This document shows, in pieces, positions 1 through 7,138 of a DNA stretch of 7,138 bases (positions are counted from its first letter, which is position 1; each line of letters opens with the position of its first letter). The DNA comes from a virus (lineage: Duplodnaviria; Heunggongvirae; Uroviricota; Caudoviricetes), in the IMG/VR virus record IMGVR_UViG_2802429226_000002, positions 1 through 7,138 of that record; one strand, 5' to 3'. The notes under the pieces are model-generated. The model was not told the DNA's origin. It did not search any database and worked only from the letters and a program-made list of their open reading frames with translations. A program made the position numbers and the translations under genes.

Positions 1-159
1 GTGGTTGGTTATTACCCGAAATTAAGCCAGCTCGTTTCCGGCCTGATGCATCACGATATTCTGACCGGAAGCGCAAAATCTTTTGCCGATTTAAACGCGC
101 AGGTTGAGCAACTCAGCAAGCGTTGTTCAGAGGCGTTCTCCAGAGGAGCGTCTGAATGA
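1..159 (+). CDS. 3' end of an upstream early-operon gene (partial; N-terminus lies outside the window). By synteny possibly a P2 B-like or other early gene, identity not established.
   Basis: Frame 1 is open from base 1 to a TGA at 157-159 (translation ...KRCSEAFSRGASE*). The stop overlaps the ATG of the next gene (ATGA at 156-159), typical of translationally coupled phage operons. Not in the ORF track because it has no start within the window. Confidence 0.4.
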   Translation: MVGYYPKLSQLVSGLMHHDILTGSAKSFADLNAQVEQLSKRCSEAFSRGASE

Positions 160-1163
160 TTACTGATGCACGTTGCCATACTGAAAATACCATCAATGTT
201 ATTTTTGTTTCAGGTGGAAAGGACAGCCTTGCTCAGTGGCTTGTCGCTATTGAAGAAAATGTACCCATATTGCCGGTTTTTGCTGATACGGGACATGAAC
301 ATCCACAGACAATGAAATATCTGGATTATCTGGAAAAACGGCTTGGCCCAATTAAAAGAGTCAGGGCTGATTTTTCCTGCCGGATTGAATCAAAGCGCAA
401 GTTTATCCAGACCAAATGGCCTGATTTGTTGGTTAACGATTGTGGAATGTCGGAAGAAGAAGCACGCCAGCGCATCAGTTGTGCGCTGGAAATTCTCAAA
501 CCAACGGGTATCCCGTTTCTTGATTTGTGTTTGTGGAAGGGGCGTTTCCCATCAACCAAAGCCAGATTTTGCACATTTGAACTGAAACATGAGCCCGTGC
601 GTTCTCAGGTAATATTGCCTTTACTCAATGAATTTGAGGAAGTGATTAGCTGGCAGGGAGTGCGTGCTCAGGAATCGCCATCACGCGCAGCTTTACCTGT
701 CTGGGAAGAGGATGCAGACAACACCCCCGGATTGCATGTATATCGCCCGATTTTGCACTGGAAGCATGAAGATGTATTTGCAATAGCCAGAAGACATGAC
801 ATTAAGCCAAATCCGTTATATCAGCAGGGGTGTGGCCGTGTTGGTTGTATGCCATGTATTCATGTCCGTAAATCTGAACTGGCAGAAATTTTTCGCCGGT
901 GGCCGGAGGAAATAAAACGGGTTGCTGAATGGGAACGACTGGTTGCGTCGTGCTCCCGTCGGGGAAATTCCACTTTTTTCCCATCCACACATGATCCGCT
1001 ACGCGCAGAACGTCGTATTGAGATTGTAACAGTCGAGGCATACGGAATAGAAACCTACCATGACTGGACAATGACAACGCGTGGGGGTACTCAGTTTGAT
1101 TTACTGGCTTCGGCGAATGATAAAGCCGTTTGCAGTAGTGTCTATGCCGGTGTATGTGAATGA
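156..1163 (+). CDS. PP-loop ATP pyrophosphatase superfamily protein (PAPS reductase-like), 335 aa; phage accessory gene of unknown role
   Basis: N-terminal SGGKDS motif (nt 210-227) is the classic SGGxDS PP-loop of the PAPS reductase / ATP sulfurylase-like family. A Cys cluster C-x4-C-x2-C (CGRVGCMPC, nt 831-857) lies near the C-terminal third. A GAGGAG Shine-Dalgarno sits at 143-148, 7 nt upstream of the ATG. The stop overlaps the start of gene A (ATGA at 1160-1163). Confidence 0.75.
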   Translation: MITDARCHTENTINVIFVSGGKDSLAQWLVAIEENVPILPVFADTGHEHPQTMKYLDYLEKRLGPIKRVRADFSCRIESKRKFIQTKWPDLLVNDCGMSEEEARQRISCALEILKPTGIPFLDLCLWKGRFPSTKARFCTFELKHEPVRSQVILPLLNEFEEVISWQGVRAQESPSRAALPVWEEDADNTPGLHVYRPILHWKHEDVFAIARRHDIKPNPLYQQGCGRVGCMPCIHVRKSELAEIFRRWPEEIKRVAEWERLVASCSRRGNSTFFPSTHDPLRAERRIEIVTVEAYGIETYHDWTMTTRGGTQFDLLASANDKAVCSSVYAGVCE

Positions 1164-3433
1164 GTCATTCTTTCCAGGAGCAATACACCTGCGTACCTCC
1201 GTCTGCGTTTGCCGCAGGCACCGGTAAGGCGTTTACCGGTGCTTATGCATGGAATGCGCCACGCGAGGCTGTCGGGCGCGAAAGACCCCTTACACGTGAC
1301 GAGATGCGTCAGGTGCAAGGTGTTTTATCCACGATTAACCGCCTGCCTTACTTTTTGCGCTCGCTGTTTACTTCACGCTATGACTACATCCGGCGCAATA
1401 AAAGCCCGGTGCACGGGTTTTATTTCCTCACATCCACTTTTCAGCGCCGTTTATGGCCGCGTATTGAGCGCGTGAATCAGCGCCATGAAATGAACACCGA
1501 CGCGTCGTTGCTGTTTCTGGCAGAGCGTGACCATTATGCGCGTCTGCCGGGGATGAATGACAAGGAGCTGAAAAAGTTTGCCGCCCGTATCTCATCGCAG
1601 CTTTTCATGATGTATGAGGAACTCTGCGATGCATGGGTTGATGCACATGGCGAGAAAGAATCGCTGTTTACAGATGAGGCGCAGGCGCATCTGTATGGTC
1701 ATGTTGCTGGCGCTGCACGTGCTTTCAATATTTCCCCTCTCTACTGGAAAAAATACCGTAAAGGACAGATGACCACGAGGCAGGCATATTCTGCCATTGC
1801 CCGTCTGTTTAACGATGAGTGGTGGACTCATCAGCTTAAAGGCCAGCGTATGCGCTGGCATGAGGCGTTACTGATTGCTGTCGGGGAGGTCAATAAAGAC
1901 CGTTCTCCTTATGCCAGTAAACATGCCATTCGTGATGTGCGTGCGCGCCGCCAGGCAAATCTGGAATTTCTTAAATCGTGTGACCTTGAAAACAAGGAAA
2001 CCGGCGAGCGCATCGACCTTATCAGTAAGGTGATGGGCAGTATTTCTAATCCAGAAATTCGCCGGATGGAGCTGATGAACACCATCGCCGGTATTGAGCG
2101 TTACGCCGCAGCAGAGGGTGATGTGGGGATGTTTATCACGCTGACCGCGCCGTCAAAGTATCACCCGACACGTCAGGTCGGAAAAGGCGAAAGTAAAACC
2201 GTGCAGCTTAATCACGGCTGGAACGATGAGGCATTTAATCCAAAGGATGCGCAGCGTTATCTCTGCCGTATCTGGAGCCTGATGCGCACGGCATTCAAGG
2301 ATAATGATTTACAGGTCTACGGTTTGCGAGTCGTCGAGCCACACCACGACGGAACGCCGCACTGGCATATGATGCTTTTTTGTAATCCACGCCAGCGTAA
2401 CCAGATTATTGAAATCATGCGTCGCTACGCGCTCAAAGAGGATGGCGACGAAAGAGGAGCTGCGCGAAACCGTTTTCAGGCAAAACACCTTAACCGGGGC
2501 GGTGCTGCGGGATATATCGCGAAATACATTTCAAAAAACATCGACGGCTATGCACTGGATGGTCAGCTCGATAACGATACCGGCAGGCCGCTGAAAGACA
2601 CTGCCGCGGCTGTTACCGCATGGGCGTCAACGTGGCGCATTCCGCAATTTAAAACGGTTGGCCTGCCGACAATGGGGGCTTACCGTGAACTACGCAAATT
2701 GCCTCGCGGCGTCAGCATTGCTGATGAGTTTGACGAACGCGTCGAGGCTGCACGCGCTGCCGCAGACAGTGGCGATTTTGCGCTGTATATCAGCGCGCAG
2801 GGTGGGGCAAATGTCCCGCGCGATTGCCAGACTGTCAGGGTCGCCCGTAGCCCCTCGGATGACGTTAACGAGTACGAGGAAGAAGTCGAGAGAGTGGTCG
2901 GCATTTACGCGCCGCATCTCGGCGCGCGTCATATTCATATCACCAGAACGACGGACTGGCGCATTGTGCCGAAAGTTCCGGTCGTTCAGCCTTTGACTTT
3001 AAAAAGCGGCATCGCCGCGCCTCGGAGTCCTGTCAATAACTGTGGAAAGTTCACCGGCGGTGATGCTTCGTTACCGGCTCCCACACCTTCTGAACACGCC
3101 GCAGCAGTGCTTAATCTGGTTGATGACGGTGTTATCGAATGGAATGACCAGGAGGTCGTGAGGGCGCTCAGGGGCGCATTAAAACACGACATGAGAACAC
3201 CAAATCGTCAGCAAAGAAACGGAAGCCCGTTAAAACCGCATGAAATTGCGCCATCGGCCAGACTGACCCGGTCGGAACGAATGCAAATCACCCGTATCCG
3301 CGTTGACCTTGGTCAGAACGGTATCAGCCCTCAGCGATGGGAGCTTGAGGCGCTGGCGCGTGGGGCAACCGTAAATTATGAGGGGGTAAACTTCAGGTAT
3401 CCGGTAAATGATGAGTGGCCGGGATTTAATTAA
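1160..3433 (+). CDS. A: Rolling-circle replication initiation endonuclease, P2 gpA family (HUH superfamily), 757 aa
   Basis: Long ORF with an HUH motif (PHWHMML; H-W-H at nt 2360-2368) and a paired-tyrosine motif G-Y-IAK-Y-ISK (Tyr codons at 2513-2515 and 2525-2527), matching the catalytic signature known for P2 A protein. Position immediately upstream of the hotspot and cos fits the P2 gene order. Confidence 0.9.
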   Translation: MSHSFQEQYTCVPPSAFAAGTGKAFTGAYAWNAPREAVGRERPLTRDEMRQVQGVLSTINRLPYFLRSLFTSRYDYIRRNKSPVHGFYFLTSTFQRRLWPRIERVNQRHEMNTDASLLFLAERDHYARLPGMNDKELKKFAARISSQLFMMYEELCDAWVDAHGEKESLFTDEAQAHLYGHVAGAARAFNISPLYWKKYRKGQMTTRQAYSAIARLFNDEWWTHQLKGQRMRWHEALLIAVGEVNKDRSPYASKHAIRDVRARRQANLEFLKSCDLENKETGERIDLISKVMGSISNPEIRRMELMNTIAGIERYAAAEGDVGMFITLTAPSKYHPTRQVGKGESKTVQLNHGWNDEAFNPKDAQRYLCRIWSLMRTAFKDNDLQVYGLRVVEPHHDGTPHWHMMLFCNPRQRNQIIEIMRRYALKEDGDERGAARNRFQAKHLNRGGAAGYIAKYISKNIDGYALDGQLDNDTGRPLKDTAAAVTAWASTWRIPQFKTVGLPTMGAYRELRKLPRGVSIADEFDERVEAARAAADSGDFALYISAQGGANVPRDCQTVRVARSPSDDVNEYEEEVERVVGIYAPHLGARHIHITRTTDWRIVPKVPVVQPLTLKSGIAAPRSPVNNCGKFTGGDASLPAPTPSEHAAAVLNLVDDGVIEWNDQEVVRALRGALKHDMRTPNRQQRNGSPLKPHEIAPSARLTRSERMQITRIRVDLGQNGISPQRWELEALARGATVNYEGVNFRYPVNDEWPGFN
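3017..3036 (+). other. Candidate origin of replication (ori / gpA nick region) inside the A coding sequence
   Basis: In P2 the ori lies within the 3' part of gene A (established). The sequence GCGCCTCGGAGTCCTGTCAA here resembles my recollection of the P2 ori nick region. Exact site and boundaries are uncertain and from memory only. Confidence 0.3.
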
Positions 3434-3632
3434 TGCTTTGATTTTTTAGTTAGGCTGCTCTAGAATCCACGCCAGTTACCGCTTGGGGTATCCTTGCATT
3501 GCTCTTGGTATTAGCTTTATACAAAGGGTGTAAAGGCTGCTATTGGCAACAATAGTGCTGGCATGGAGATAATCTCATGTTAAAGTTAGTGAAAGTACGT
3601 CAGTACAATCGCTATCGTTTCGGTAAGTGGGA

Positions 3633-3652
3633 GACGGTGTGTGAACACCGTC
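3633..3652. terminator. Perfect 8-bp stem / 4-nt loop hairpin between convergent genes; possible weak bidirectional terminator or RNA-stabilising stem-loop
   Basis: GACGGTGT (3633-3640), loop GTGA, ACACCGTC (3645-3652). It lies about 200 nt after the A stop and about 30 nt after the stop of the - strand ATPase gene. The following T-run is weak on both strands (GTTCTTAC on +), so it is not a textbook intrinsic terminator. Confidence 0.3.
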
Positions 3653-3680
3653 GTTCTTACCCAACCCGATGATATGCGGC

Positions 3681-5900
3681 CTAAGCGGTAACGGTTTCCT
3701 CTTCCTCTTCGTCCATCATTTTCAAATAATGTTTTTCATCACCAGTCATACGAAAAATGGTTTTTAGTTGCTCCATATATTTCTCTGGAGATATATCTCC
3801 CATGTCTGTGATGTTAACTGCATCTGAATGGGAACCTCTATTAATGTATCTATAAAATGCTCTAAAATCATTATTCTTATCATCGCTAGCAAGTTTATTT
3901 AACTCTGTCTGTAATGCATCCGTTCTATGAACAAATGCGAAGTAGTATTCCAGTATATTTCTCATGATGTTAGGTATTATAACTTTATTTACCTTTCCAT
4001 CCTTCGCATCTTTTAATACTTGCCATAGGGACTGGTATTCATTCTGAATGCTCTTTTTCTCTATTTCTGTAATTATGCTATATTCATTTTTTGTTACTCG
4101 TCCAAGATAATAATCACGCTTGAATGTTCTATCTTCTTTGCTTCTAGGAGCTAATTTGATAAGTTCATGAAAGAAATAAAGATTATGTGTGAGTATTAAT
4201 GTTTTCTTTACTGCTTTGTTATTGTTGATTATTTCATGGTGAATTATTGAGGCAATATCGTACACATAATTTTGAGAGAGGCTGGATATTGGATCATCAA
4301 TAACGATAAATACATCTCGCATATCCGTATCATTCTTATCTGTCTTACCTTTACAGCATTCTAGAAAGTAGAGAAAGGTAATTAAGGTTTTTTCACCCTC
4401 GCTAAGAGATCTGTATACATCTTTATCTGTTGTGTTTTCAGAACGTGATATAATATATTTATCATTGCTCTCAGTGTGTTTTTTTATGCTAAAACCATAA
4501 ATTCCTAATAATTTTAGACGTTGATTTATAGAATCTATGGTTGCATCAATATTAGATATTTGATCGCGTAGCTCTTTGATCTTTTTGTTATTGTTATCTC
4601 CTTGTTCTTTTATGGAATTTAATTCAAGTTGATATTGTTCATAAATGATTTTATAGTCATTCTCATATTTTGAGAAAGCTTCAAACTCAGCGTTGCATAA
4701 TTCTCTTATTGCTCCCCATATTTTGTAACGTATAGACTTTTCACTATCCTTAAATTGTTTGACTTTAATATTTATTTCTTTAATTCTATTGTTGTACTCT
4801 GTTATATTATCAACTACCTTTGCTTCAAGGTCGCTATTGGATTCCAAAATAATAGATATAGATGGGTTATTGATTTTATCTAACATCAATTTTAAATTTT
4901 TGTTTGCTATTTCCTCTAATAACGCTATATGAGATGATGTTATATCTTTTTCTTTTGAGGTGATTAATTCACAAGATGAAATCTCTTGTTTTATTTTTTT
5001 TAAATTATCTATGGTAGCGGATTCATAAGACGATCTGATAATGCGTATTTGGTCAACTTTCTTGGAGTAGCTATCATCAAAGATAGATTCTATTGCTTCT
5101 AAAAATTTGTCTTTAATAGTGTCTTCTTGGCAGAATGGGCAACATGTGCCATTTAAATATAATTCCTTCCCTTTTTTCACCCAGTCAAGGTTTTGAAGTT
5201 GTTTAATTGTTTCTGACAAATAGCTATTACTTGAGTCTATAATCGGAGTGGATAAAAATTCTTTATCTTTTTCTGAAATGATATATTTTTCTAAAGGTGT
5301 AATTGATGCAGTGAATTTATCTTTGTTCTTTAAAAGAATACTATATTCTTGAGCAAGTGACTCGATATTAACGTCAGTGGTTTGAGGGGCTTTTTTAACT
5401 TGCTCATAAAATGATCTCTTGCTTCCTAACTGACCTTTCATCAAGATCTTTAAGTCAGATGATCTAAAAGGTTCTGCTTTATTCCATATTAAATCAATAT
5501 ATTCATTTTCTTTATTGTTTTTATCTTTAATTAAACGCTCAATAACGTTTTTTTTATCTTTGTATTTTGTAAGTAGGTCTTGTCTTATAGCTTCTTTTTC
5601 CAGCAATTCTTTTTCAATGTCAGCATTTTCCTTACTTAAAGTGAATACTCCTTTTTGCTCTTTTGCATTATAAAAATTATCCTCAACAAACTTGGTATTA
5701 TAAACCAATAGGCGAAAAGTATCTATGAAAGGACATTCGCATTCTTTGTAGTCCGTGTTATTTGGATTATAGAAATAATTAGATATAGTTGATTTTCCAC
5801 AACCGTTGTGTCCATAAAGTATATTAATTTTTTTTGAGAGATTAAGAGTCGTGAAGCTATCTTTCTTATAGCTGGTTATATTCTTTAATTTAAGTTCCAT
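3681..5900 (-). CDS. ABC/SMC-like (AAA_13-type) ATPase with coiled-coil insertion, CxxC motif and C-terminal effector-like domain, 739 aa; candidate single-gene anti-phage defence protein, RloC/PrrC-like (hypothesis)
   Basis: Walker A GHNGCGKST (aa 30-38, nt 5787-5813). ABC signature LSEGEK (aa 499-504, nt 4389-4406). Walker B VFIVIDDP (aa 530-537, nt 4290-4313) followed by an LTHN H-loop-like motif. About 400 aa of K/E-rich, heptad-like sequence between Walker A and the signature, with CCPFC at aa 253-257 (nt 5130-5144). C-terminal ~150 aa form a separate domain. GAGG RBS 7 nt upstream of the ATG (read on the - strand). The gene is strongly AT-rich relative to its flanks. Confidence 0.85.
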   Translation of the reverse strand: MELKLKNITSYKKDSFTTLNLSKKINILYGHNGCGKSTISNYFYNPNNTDYKECECPFIDTFRLLVYNTKFVEDNFYNAKEQKGVFTLSKENADIEKELLEKEAIRQDLLTKYKDKKNVIERLIKDKNNKENEYIDLIWNKAEPFRSSDLKILMKGQLGSKRSFYEQVKKAPQTTDVNIESLAQEYSILLKNKDKFTASITPLEKYIISEKDKEFLSTPIIDSSNSYLSETIKQLQNLDWVKKGKELYLNGTCCPFCQEDTIKDKFLEAIESIFDDSYSKKVDQIRIIRSSYESATIDNLKKIKQEISSCELITSKEKDITSSHIALLEEIANKNLKLMLDKINNPSISIILESNSDLEAKVVDNITEYNNRIKEINIKVKQFKDSEKSIRYKIWGAIRELCNAEFEAFSKYENDYKIIYEQYQLELNSIKEQGDNNNKKIKELRDQISNIDATIDSINQRLKLLGIYGFSIKKHTESNDKYIISRSENTTDKDVYRSLSEGEKTLITFLYFLECCKGKTDKNDTDMRDVFIVIDDPISSLSQNYVYDIASIIHHEIINNNKAVKKTLILTHNLYFFHELIKLAPRSKEDRTFKRDYYLGRVTKNEYSIITEIEKKSIQNEYQSLWQVLKDAKDGKVNKVIIPNIMRNILEYYFAFVHRTDALQTELNKLASDDKNNDFRAFYRYINRGSHSDAVNITDMGDISPEKYMEQLKTIFRMTGDEKHYLKMMDEEEEETVTA

Positions 5901-5936
5901 TTTAAAACCTCATCATTGCCAATGATATTGTATAAA

Positions 5937-5990
5937 TATTTAAGCTGTTTAACATGAATTATATTGCTAAACGATAAAGATCTACCTCAG
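5937..5990 (-). promoter_or_regulatory. Candidate promoter region for the ATPase gene
   Basis: On the - strand a perfect TATAAT hexamer (plus coordinates 5958-5963) lies about 58 nt upstream of the ATG at 5900. No convincing -35 was found (GGTAGA-like at 17 bp). The region is so AT-rich that chance -10-like hexamers are expected. Confidence 0.2.
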
Positions 5991-6230: not shown

Positions 6231-6249
6231 GGCGAGGCGGGGAAAGCAC
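6231..6249. other. cos: cos site: 19-nt cohesive-end sequence of P2-type phages
   Basis: GGCGAGGCGGGGAAAGCAC at 6231-6249 matches my recollection of the P2 19-nt 5'-protruding cohesive end. It is placed as expected in a prophage or circularised genome, between the right-end hotspot and the portal gene Q. Flanking sequence is GC-rich, unlike the AT-rich insert. Confidence 0.7.
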
Positions 6250-6391: not shown

Positions 6392-6413
6392 AAAAAAGCC
6401 GCCCGCAGGCGGC
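6392..6413 (-). terminator. Rho-independent terminator downstream of the portal gene (- strand)
   Basis: Read on the - strand: stop TGA, 5 nt, GCCGCC-TGCG-GGCGGC hairpin (plus 6398-6413) followed directly by TTTTTT (plus 6392-6397 = AAAAAA). GC-rich 6-bp stem, 4-nt loop, U-tract. Confidence 0.65.
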
Positions 6414-6418
6414 GATGT

Positions 6419-7138
6419 TCAGCCGTTGTCAGTGTCCAGTGAGTAGTTTTTAAAGCGGATGACCTCCTGACCGAGCCAGCCGTTTATTTCCCGAATCCTG
6501 TCCTGTAACGGGATAAGCTCATTGCGGACAAAGACCTTTGCCACTTTCTCAATATCACCCAGCGACCCGACGTTCTCCGGCTTGCCACCCATCAACTGAA
6601 AGGGGATGCGGTGCGCGTCCAGCAGGTCAGCGGAGCTGGCTTTTTTGATATTAAAAAAATCGTCCTTCGTTGCCACTTCACTGAGCGGGATAATTTTGAT
6701 GCCGTCTGGCTTTCCCTGCGGTGCATAGAGAAACAGGTTTTTAAAGTTGTTGCGGCCTTTTGACTTGACCATGTTTTCGCGGAGCATTTCGATATCGTTG
6801 CGATCCTGCACGGCATCGGTGACATACATGATGTATCCGGCATGTGCGCCGTTTTCATAATACTTGCGGCGGAACAGCGTGGCTGATTCATTCAGCCACG
6901 CAGAGTTAAGGGCGCTGAGATATTCCGGCAGACCGTACAGCTCCTGATTAATATCCGGCTCCAGCAGGTGAAACACGGAGCCGGGCGCGAAAGGTGTCGG
7001 CTCGTTGAAGGACGGCACCCACCAGTAAACATCCTCCTCCACGCCACGGCGGGTATATTTTGCCGGTGAGGTTTCCAGTCTGATGACCTTACCGGTGGTG
7101 CTGTAACGCTTTTCCAGAAACGCATTACCGAACACCAG
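6419..7138 (-). CDS. Q: Portal protein, P2 gpQ-like (PBSX-family portal), 3' part only; the N-terminus lies beyond the window end
   Basis: The - strand ORF is open to the window edge (the codon at 7136-7138 is sense) and stops at 6419-6421. It sits immediately beside cos, as Q does in P2. The translation (…YGLPEYLSALNSAWLNE…NGAHAGYIMYV…) is consistent in character with phage portal proteins; family assignment is by synteny plus recollection. Confidence 0.8.
   Translation of the reverse strand: MVFGNAFLEKRYSTTGKVIRLETSPAKYTRRGVEEDVYWWVPSFNEPTPFAPGSVFHLLEPDINQELYGLPEYLSALNSAWLNESATLFRRKYYENGAHAGYIMYVTDAVQDRNDIEMLRENMVKSKGRNNFKNLFLYAPQGKPDGIKIIPLSEVATKDDFFNIKKASSADLLDAHRIPFQLMGGKPENVGSLGDIEKVAKVFVRNELIPLQDRIREINGWLGQEVIRFKNYSLDTDNG

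Follow-up and report, generated by a model that had tools for sequence, protein, structure and literature searches.

A predicted RloC-type anticodon nuclease between the replication endonuclease and portal genes of a P2-like Escherichia prophage

A stretch of 7,138 nucleotides of tailed-phage DNA (IMG/VR record IMGVR_UViG_2802429226_000002, hereafter the window) carries a gene for an ABC-type ATPase whose chain continues well beyond the ATPase itself. What is this C-terminal extension for? An initial annotation had tentatively proposed an anticodon-nuclease effector of the PrrC/RloC type, built around an Arg-Glu-His triad. The locus therefore raises two questions, namely whether the extension looks like an anticodon nuclease at all and, if so, to which of the two families the protein belongs.

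Translation of positions 3681-5900 on the minus strand yields a 739-residue protein, WP_105288656.1, whose C-terminal end reads DEKHYLKMMDEEEEETVTA before the stop codon (Table 1). A GAGG Shine-Dalgarno sequence lies 7 nt 5' of the ATG. The sigma-70-like element further upstream is only a promoter candidate, because such sites are no more numerous in the region than expected from shuffled sequence. The G+C content of the gene is about 30%, as against about 52% in the flanks, and the open reading frame list contains no partner gene in this low-G+C insert, that is, no frame of at least 50 residues besides those nested inside the main gene. The surroundings are those of a P2-like prophage: the gene is flanked by the replication endonuclease gene (gpA) and the portal gene, with cos nearby. 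The gene was most likely gained by horizontal transfer, as a moron in the variable gpA-gpQ hotspot that lies beside cos in this P2-like Escherichia prophage. Neither the window nor the two annotated E. coli loci contain hsd genes. Among 5426 complete E. coli genomes, 20 carry the window's allele at at least 95% identity, and a further 86 have matches at 60-80% identity, some of them only partial.

Table 1. Features of the RloC-like gene and its product, in window positions
Feature	Position	Strand	Residues and basis
Complete RloC-like gene	3681..5900	-	739 aa plus stop; ORF list, composition, profile matches
Sigma-70-like promoter candidate	5922..5951	-	22-51 nt upstream of ATG; 9/12 matches, weak
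N-terminal lobe of ABC ATPase head	5637..5900	-	aa 1-88; beta/alpha lobe in AF2 model
Walker A, GHNGCGKS	5790-5813	-	aa 30-37; motif search; G30 and K36 invariant (36 homologues)
Helical (coiled-coil type) insert splitting the ATPase head	4512..5636	-	aa 89-463, ~375 residues; AF2 model
Zinc-hook motif, C254-P-F-C257	5130..5141	-	non-helical loop aa 248-262 in the model, near the middle of the insert
C-terminal lobe motifs of ABC ATPase	4185..4406	-	motif search and alignment
Signature, LSEGE	4392-4406	-	aa 499-503; S500 and E503 invariant (36 homologues)
Walker B/D-loop, VFIVIDDPISS	4281-4313	-	aa 530-540; D535 and D536 invariant (36 homologues)
H-loop, H572 (LTHNLYFF)	4185-4187	-	invariant in 36 homologues
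Predicted C-terminal anticodon-nuclease (divergent HEPN-type) domain	3684..4148	-	aa ~585-739
Putative catalytic motif, first half, R647-N648-I-L-E651	3948..3962	-	by homology to PrrC/RloC
Putative catalytic motif, second half, R684-x2-N687-x2-S690-H691	3828..3851	-	by homology

The ABC ATPase head of the protein is Rad50-like, and a helical insert with an invariant CPFC zinc hook divides it in two. An AF2 model of the full-length chain (pLDDT 83.8, falling below 50 in the stretch 690-698 around the candidate histidine) contains long helices at residues 89-140, 263-308, 314-343, 355-400 and 402-447 of the insert, and its best fold matches in the PDB were Rad50 (7zr1, 9q9m and 5da9) and SMC heads with coiled coil. 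Conservation was read from an alignment of 36 full-length homologues at 20-70% identity, which has 30 invariant columns in total. C254 and C257 are present in all 36, and a CxxC was found in 67 out of 67 further homologues. With H572 as the H-loop histidine, about 155 residues remain after the ATPase, in agreement with the earlier description of a C-terminal extension of about 150 residues closed by an acidic tail, DEEEEETVTA.

The extension consists of a beta-hairpin, seven helices and the acidic tail, and we infer from sequence homology that it is a tRNA-cleaving anticodon nuclease. The three residues of the proposed triad lie in the translation exactly where the initial annotation had placed them, R647 and E651 in MRNILE (codons 3960-3962 and 3948-3950) and H691 in NRGSHSD (codon 3828-3830). 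An R-x3-E by itself is unremarkable, since it occurs four times in the 739-residue protein; what lifts the triad above chance is its conservation across homologues. All three residues are invariant in the 36 homologues, down to 20% identity, and the only other positions of the domain to share this property are N644 and S690. N687 is retained in 32 and N648 in 22 of the 36. A pattern of the form R-x3-E-x(32-58)-[ST]H was found within the final 30% of the chain in 55 of the 67 further homologues, which belong to other species and came from a scan of genome contigs (Geobacillus kaustophilus and Acinetobacter baylyi are not among the 80 loci listed). R684-x6-H691 has the Rx4-6H form of HEPN active sites, as Rx6H, with the histidine invariant and the arginine in 23 of the 36 homologues. 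This limited conservation of R684 is an observation that counts against an RloC reading.

Profile searches separate the two candidate families further. Pfam AAA_13 matches residues 16-716 (E=4.6e-102), and the protein matches the PADLOC candidate family PDC-S06 with E=4.4e-253. In a full-length search the PADLOC PrrC model also matches residues 454-734 (E=2.4e-14). When the C-terminal domain was searched in isolation, as the initial annotation had suggested, the outcome was split: the last 150 residues match the C-terminal part of AAA_13 (E=1.7e-19), whereas neither the last 150 nor the last 179 residues match the PrrC model at E<=10. The full-length PrrC match is therefore due to the ATPase part, and the link to PrrC rests on that part together with short motifs. 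Other effector folds had been raised for the domain, namely HEPN, TOPRIM and peptidase; Pfam returned only AAA_13 as significant. HEPN had moreover been set against the anticodon nuclease as a competing reading, which does not hold: PMC3710099 counts the nuclease domain of PrrC and RloC among the divergent HEPN domains, so that the two are not alternatives. A fold search with the C-terminal domain gave no strong enzyme match, the full-length chain gave only a chance hit among PDB sequences (1ve3, E=0.05) and no solved RloC or PrrC relative, and NCBIfam models matched at noise level only. The protein and its relatives are currently labelled 'AAA family ATPase' in RefSeq, the unnamed candidate PDC-S06 in PADLOC, and PHROG 2801 of unknown function.

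The published definition of RloC (PMC2610378) combines ABC motifs, a coiled-coil/zinc-hook insert and the C-terminal motif R-X3-E-X36-52-H, often with a serine before the histidine, in a protein of 658-897 residues. Each of these features is found in the window protein: the ABC motifs GHNGCGKS, LSEGE, VFIVIDDP and H572; a coiled-coil/CXXC insert that splits the head (residues 89-463, with C254-P-F-C257); and R647-X3-E651-X39-H691 with S690, all four residues invariant. At 739 residues it is a single polypeptide of fitting size, and with gpA and the portal gene as neighbours it has no restriction-modification linkage. The interval between the glutamate and the histidine, noted at the outset as longer than in PrrC, is indeed X39 against X31 in PrrC, and the doubt that this had cast is removed by the RloC range, within which X39 with a preceding serine falls; GkaRloC itself has X40. 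In GkaRloC the R692A, E696A and H737A mutations each abolish nuclease activity (PMC2610378), and R692 and E696 correspond to R647 and E651. RloC and the window protein are each encoded by one gene that is not linked to restriction-modification genes, and they share a Rad50-like fold, which for the window protein is predicted here. They differ in that the window protein is encoded on a temperate phage and the characterised RloC in a chromosomal locus, and identity to the characterised GkaRloC and AbaRloC, to which the protein was likened through published motif descriptions, is probably only about 20-25%.

One rival reading is a PrrC-type nuclease, which would be silenced by a type I restriction-modification system, freed by a phage anti-restriction protein, and would nick tRNA-Lys once, on the 5' side of its wobble base. 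PrrC of E. coli CT196 also has an ABC ATPase with the nuclease placed C-terminal to it, and the six residues of EcoPrrC found to be essential by mutagenesis, R320, N321, E324, R349, N352 and H356 (PMC3025547), correspond to R647, N648, E651, R684, N687 and H691 of the window protein. The local spacing of RNxxE and RxxNxxxH is identical, R647-N648-I-L-E651 aligning with R320-N321-x-x-E324 and R684 to H691 with R349-x2-N352-x3-H356; the full-length match to the PADLOC PrrC model points the same way. However, none of the features that set PrrC apart is found in the window protein. PrrC has about 400 residues and lacks a coiled-coil/zinc-hook insert, whereas the window protein has 739 with some 375 in an insert foreign to PrrC. 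The prrC gene invariably lies inside a type Ic hsd locus, which silences its product, whereas the window gene sits between gpA and the portal gene with no hsd gene nearby. The PrrC triad, R320-X3-E324-X31-H356, has the shorter interval, and the PrrC model finds no match in the C-terminal domain when this is searched by itself. A LARP motif of PrrC is reported absent from RloC, and RloC of Acinetobacter functions without a restriction-modification partner (PMC3874168). We consider a PrrC-type nuclease very unlikely. The insert, the lack of linked hsd genes and the failure of the isolated C-terminus to match the PADLOC PrrC model place the protein with RloC rather than with PrrC. Of the original proposal, the RloC half stands, with every sequence feature of that family present, and the PrrC half is given up on the insert, the hsd genes and the profile. 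On the evidence of its sequence, the 739-residue protein is very probably an RloC orthologue, a single-protein abortive-infection defence carried in a hotspot of P2-like prophages.

Two further readings leave the ATPase assignment intact and concern the C-terminal domain and its function. Given that the best matches among solved structures are Rad50 and SMC heads, and that the fold search with the C-terminal domain found no strong enzyme match, the protein could be a Rad50/SbcC-like DNA-binding ATPase without a nuclease of its own, in which the C-terminal domain binds protein or nucleic acid and R/E/H are structural residues. Rad50 and SbcC, however, have no such C-terminal domain, the slot contains no partner nuclease gene, and mutations at the counterparts of the five invariant C-terminal residues abolish nuclease activity in GkaRloC and toxicity in EcoPrrC; we give this reading almost no credence. 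Alternatively, the protein may belong to a sister group of ABC-HEPN abortive-infection RNases (the 'APECO1_4465' group) that has the RloC architecture with another target or trigger: other tRNAs, mRNA or rRNA might be cut, and a phage protein or replication intermediate might be sensed rather than double-strand breaks. PMC3710099 lists the prophage APEC O1 group apart from the RloC-like and PrrC-like groups, PADLOC and PHROG file the protein as uncharacterised, identity to clades annotated RloC is only 20-30%, and the ABC-ATPase tRNase Old, which P2 carries in this slot, has a trigger logic of its own (bioRxiv 10.64898/2026.07.10.737580). Yet every RloC-defining sequence feature is present and invariant, the APEC O1 orthologue was apparently included by the authors who defined RloC, and no sequence feature indicates a different substrate. 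Membership of such a sister group appears improbable. It is conceivable, if still unlikely, that the Enterobacteriaceae prophage clade (APEC O1 type, PDC-S06) is a functionally distinct offshoot of RloC itself, which its P2 host phage has tuned to a trigger or target other than that of the chromosomal RloCs. The zinc hook and the R/E/H site would be retained in such an offshoot. Like P2 Old, it might respond to the DNA ends or replication intermediates of competing phages, and it might cut a different set of tRNAs. If this were the case, unrelated ABC-ATPase tRNases would substitute for each other in the gpA-gpQ slot.

For the preferred assignment to RloC, a mechanism can be sketched by analogy with the Geobacillus and Acinetobacter proteins. 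A wobble-excising activity that depends on ATP hydrolysis and linear DNA for its activation is known only for GkaRloC and AbaRloC; the papers characterising RloC are those of Davidov & Kaufmann (2008) and Klaiman et al. (2012, 2014). As long as the lysogen is at rest, the zinc hook and the coiled coil would keep the nuclease silent. Once a superinfecting phage produced DNA ends or breaks, the head would bind DNA and hydrolyse ATP in a single round, and this would turn the nuclease on. The C-terminal domain would then cut the tRNA anticodon loop by metal-independent transesterification, with R647, E651 and H691 as the active site and N648, R684 and N687 assisting. The first cut would fall 3' and the second 5' of the wobble nucleotide, which would thereby be excised. 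Because wobble excision is beyond repair by phage kinase and ligase, translation would stop and the infection would abort.

The protein is already catalogued and is nothing new in kind: the definition of RloC dates from 2008, the assignment of its nuclease domain to the HEPN superfamily from 2013, and the tabulation of RloC in the P2 gpA-gpQ hotspot from 2022. The discovery value is accordingly small, and the practical value lies in annotation. The sequence features justify the name 'RloC-like anticodon nuclease' for WP_105288656.1 and its relatives. E. coli with its phage collection would also offer a handy natural system; by their own account, the RloC authors had lacked a natural host with infecting phages.

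In the literature we found no published evidence of a P2-borne RloC protecting against phage or cutting tRNA; nor did a search for RloC structures and for recent functional work on the prophage-borne proteins turn up either. Close relatives have nevertheless been recorded. The 738-residue protein WP_000423308.1 of E. coli APEC O1 occupies the same gpA-portal slot of a P2-like prophage, is 65% identical over its full length and about 85% in the C-terminal domain, and has all motifs identical; the two alleles differ, with 70% identity at the DNA level. From organism, length and flanking genes we infer that it is entry 51 (YP_852004) of the 2008 RloC table (Table S1), an E. coli APEC O1 protein of 738 residues flanked by 'phage replication initiation, capsid'. 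One source names the APEC O1 sequence 'wobble nucleotide-excising tRNase'. It is probably also the 'APECO1_4465' prototype of the prophage ABC-HEPN group of Anantharaman et al. (2013), who set that group beside the RloC and PrrC groups and not inside RloC (PMC3710099).

Rousset et al. (2022, Table S5B), who surveyed the gpA-gpQ hotspot of P2, list 420 loci of their system #5, an AAA_13 protein described as 'RloC-like'; the authors note the resemblance to RloC and report no defence phenotype for the system. Its architecture is the same, with one AAA_13 gene in the gpA-gpQ interval of E. coli P2-like prophages and CPFC in the sequence given, and the window carries another allele of it, as the representative is only 48% identical to the window protein over its first 399 residues, the part shown. 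In phage P2 itself the same slot holds Old, an ABC ATPase joined to a TOPRIM tRNase and encoded together with tin. P2 Old follows the logic predicted for the window protein, in that one polypeptide combines an ABC-ATPase sensor with an RNase effector and brings about abortive infection. Its effector fold is unrelated, TOPRIM as against HEPN-type, and it has no zinc-hook insert, so that the two effectors are analogues and not homologues.

The initial annotation proposed that R647, E651 and H691, near the C-terminus of the 739-aa RloC-like protein, form a PrrC/RloC-type anticodon nuclease site. Translation confirmed their codons (3960-3962, 3948-3950 and 3828-3830, respectively), the local sequences MRNILE and NRGSHSD and the tail DEEEEETVTA; with H572 as the H-loop histidine, about 155 residues follow the ATPase. 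Because the protein contains R-x3-E four times, the pattern alone is uninformative and conservation is the deciding test. We collected 88 homologues and aligned the 36 full-length ones, which range from 70% to 20% identity. Thirty columns are invariant, including the ATPase-motif positions G30, K36, S500, E503, D535, D536 and H572 as well as the cysteines C254 and C257. The invariant residues of the C-terminal domain are exactly N644, R647, E651, S690 and H691; conservation of R/E/H, which the annotation had set as a test, thus holds in 36/36 homologues. N687, R684 and N648 are kept in 32/36, 23/36 and 22/36, respectively. In 67 further homologues from genomes of other species, a CxxC always stands at the equivalent position, and 55 of them carry R-x3-E-x(32-58)-[ST]H within the last 30% of the protein. 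Conservation in both sets indicates that the R/E/H observation is real and far beyond chance. An E-C-E-C pair (YKECECPF, aa 53-56, 5733-5744 on the minus strand) adjoins the ATPase N-lobe and an extra cysteine, C253, immediately precedes the CPFC zinc hook; the cysteine at the first of these extra positions is the majority residue among homologues.

Davidov and Kaufmann defined RloC, which is distantly homologous to the anticodon nuclease PrrC, by four features (PMC2610378). These are the ABC ATPase motifs; a Rad50-like coiled-coil/zinc-hook (CXXC) insert that splits the ATPase; a C-terminal R-X3-E-X36-52-H, often with Ser before His; and a size of 658-897 aa together with only rare linkage to a restriction-modification locus. 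With R647-X3-E651-X39-S690-H691, CPFC, intact ABC motifs and a length of 739 aa, the present protein agrees with RloC on each point. The E-to-H spacing is indeed longer than that of PrrC (X39 versus X31), and this feature, which had made the first reading tentative, is the very difference between RloC and PrrC. The proposed anticodon nuclease is thus supported and, at the sequence level, sharpened to RloC. In Geobacillus kaustophilus RloC (GkaRloC) the triad is R692/E696/H737 (X40), and alanine mutants of each residue lack nuclease activity and toxicity (PMC2610378). The protein matches Pfam AAA_13 over its whole length (residues 16-716, E=4.6e-102) and also matches the unnamed PADLOC candidate family PDC-S06 (E=4.4e-253); when isolated, its C-terminal 150 residues still align with the final 120 positions of AAA_13 (E=1.7e-19). 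A C-terminal-domain profile run against 1.84 billion proteins identified 2013 cluster representatives. In the best 150 of these the domain is always C-terminal and therefore travels with this architecture; most measure ~720-760 aa, and those that are shorter probably represent fragments.

The full-length AlphaFold model (pLDDT 83.8) has four parts, listed in the table. Among solved structures it is closest to Rad50 in Mre11-Rad50 complexes and to SMC heads; the ATPases of four defence systems, retron, Lamassu, PARIS and Septu, come next. A model of aa 578-739 (pLDDT 83.6) predicts a beta-hairpin and then seven helices, placing R647 and E651 on one long helix and S690 and H691 in a short inter-helix segment of lower confidence. 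Foldseek with this domain model returned no significant match. R684-x6-H691 conforms to the Rx4-6H pattern of HEPN domains. Anantharaman et al. assigned the PrrC and RloC nuclease domains to the HEPN superfamily (PMC3710099), and the predicted C-terminal fold is compatible with that assignment without proving it.

Some features recall PrrC itself. Alanine scanning of E. coli PrrC found R320, N321, E324, R349, N352 and H356 essential (PMC3025547), and R647-N648-x-x-E651 with R684-x-x-N687-x-x-x-H691 reproduces the PrrC local spacing in both halves. With the PADLOC PrrC model, the full-length protein gives a match over aa 454-734 (E=2.4e-14) and the isolated C-terminal 150 residues give none. 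A PrrC-type mechanism is nevertheless unlikely, because the hsd locus is absent, the helical insert is present, and neither the E-to-H spacing nor the profile fits. The identity of the invariant residues makes a protein that is solely a DNA-binding ATPase very unlikely. A sister clade whose function has diverged towards a different trigger or target has a low but appreciable probability.

The gene for this putative RloC-type nuclease lies in a P2-like prophage, of which the window is part. It is the single long ORF listed between gpA and the portal gene, and G+C is ~30% around it versus ~52% on both sides. Complete E. coli genomes are annotated with the same gene order; in NZ_CP134805, for instance, it runs from integrase through C, cox, B and the replication endonuclease to an 'AAA family ATPase', which is followed by portal, terminase, scaffold and capsid. 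The sequence GGCGAGGCGGGGAAAGCAC, the 19-base cohesive end (cos) of phage P2, has one exact match (6231-6249, plus strand) between the RloC-like ORF and the portal gene, with a chance expectation of none. This position agrees with the 'cos-proximal hotspot' described by Rousset et al. (PMC9122126).

Features of the window and predicted parts of the RloC-like protein
Feature	Position	Strand	Basis
PAPS-reductase-family gene	156-1163	+	PHROG 424 match
Replication endonuclease gpA	1160-3433	+	Pfam Phage_GPA, E=3.4e-124
RloC-like ORF, 739 aa, between gpA and portal gene	3681-5900	-	ORF listing
Portal gene end	6419-7135	-	Phage_portal
N-terminal ATPase lobe	aa 1-88		full-length AlphaFold model
Long helical insert	aa 89-463		full-length AlphaFold model; CPFC in loop 248-262
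Second ATPase lobe	aa 470-581		full-length AlphaFold model
Helical C-terminal domain	after second ATPase lobe		full-length AlphaFold model

The stop codon of the PAPS-reductase-family gene overlaps the gpA start (ATGA, 1160-1163); the gene matches PHROG 424, and in PADLOC it bears a weak resemblance to SspD, BrxP and DndC. It is missing from the 20 E. coli genomes sharing the remainder of the window and occurs at the equivalent site, between a DUF5405 gene and gpA, in 44/5426 genomes. With this patchy presence it appears to be another variable cargo gene of P2-like phages, independent of the first, and it might function in DNA modification or anti-defence. A spacer of normal G+C, which separates gpA from the RloC-like 3' end, holds a candidate 31-codon ORF, MLKLVKVRQYNRYRFGKWETVCEHRRSYPTR (3578-3673, plus strand), without annotation in the E. 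coli records examined. A hairpin rich in G+C, with a T run behind it (GCCGCCTGCGGGCGGC TTTTTT; 6398-6413, minus strand), directly follows the stop codon of the portal gene; it probably terminates the late P-Q transcript and would insulate the RloC-like gene downstream.

The RloC-like protein is already catalogued in three sources. Orthologue 51 in Table S1 of the 2008 RloC paper is a 738-aa protein of Escherichia coli APEC O1 (YP_852004) flanked by phage replication initiation and capsid (PMC2610378). On the APEC O1 chromosome (925932-928148), a 738-aa 'AAA family ATPase', probably the listed orthologue judging by organism, length and flanking genes, lies between P2-like prophage replication endonuclease and portal genes; it shares 65% full-length identity and identical C-terminal motifs with the 739-aa protein, and one public source names its exact sequence 'wobble nucleotide-excising tRNase'. 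Anantharaman et al. described a prophage-borne ABC-HEPN group with its prototype in APEC O1 (PMC3710099). Rousset et al. surveyed the gpA-gpQ hotspot, the variable slot between the gpA and portal genes, in E. coli P2-like prophages; their system #5, 'AAA_13', was counted 420 times and is noted as 'RloC-like' (PMC9122126). Its representative is 48% identical to the 739-aa protein over the 399 residues given. That paper reports no defence phenotype for system #5, and 'AAA_13' and 'RloC' are both absent from what are presumably its tables of tested systems. The exact protein, WP_105288656.1, is annotated only as 'AAA family ATPase'. Homologues occur in 106/5426 complete E. coli genomes: the window's allele at 95% identity or higher in 20, and 60-80% matches, some partial, in 86. 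Slot alleles show ~99%, ~70% and ~68.7% DNA identity, and in mosaic alleles only 53% of the gene aligns. The NZ_CP146687 copy is interrupted by IS5, and some copies are annotated as two ORFs. Between alleles, the C-terminal nuclease domain (~85% aa identity) is far better kept than the coiled-coil insert (~50-55%). The remaining value of the protein lies in improved annotation and in an easy experimental system.

The analysis itself reveals the architecture and the conserved residues; the most likely mechanism is inferred from the biochemistry of GkaRloC and Acinetobacter baylyi RloC (AbaRloC) (PMC3458546, PMC3874168). The resting protein would be silenced via the zinc hook. The nuclease would be turned on when the protein binds linear DNA (DNA ends) and its Rad50-like head hydrolyses ATP, and would stay active as long as the protein remains DNA-bound. 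Two cuts by the nuclease, the first 3' and the second 5' of the wobble nucleotide, would excise this nucleotide. Wobble excision was proposed to defeat phage tRNA repair. The gene features fit a prophage-expressed abortive-infection gene acting against competing phages: it is low in G+C, cos-adjacent and located in the slot occupied by old and tin in P2, and it lies downstream of the terminator-like hairpin that follows the portal gene, with a Shine-Dalgarno and a weak candidate promoter-like site of its own. The P2 protein Old, whose gene occupies this slot, was recently described as an ABC-ATPase/TOPRIM tRNase (bioRxiv 10.64898/2026.07.10.737580), which makes Old and the RloC-like protein functional analogues.
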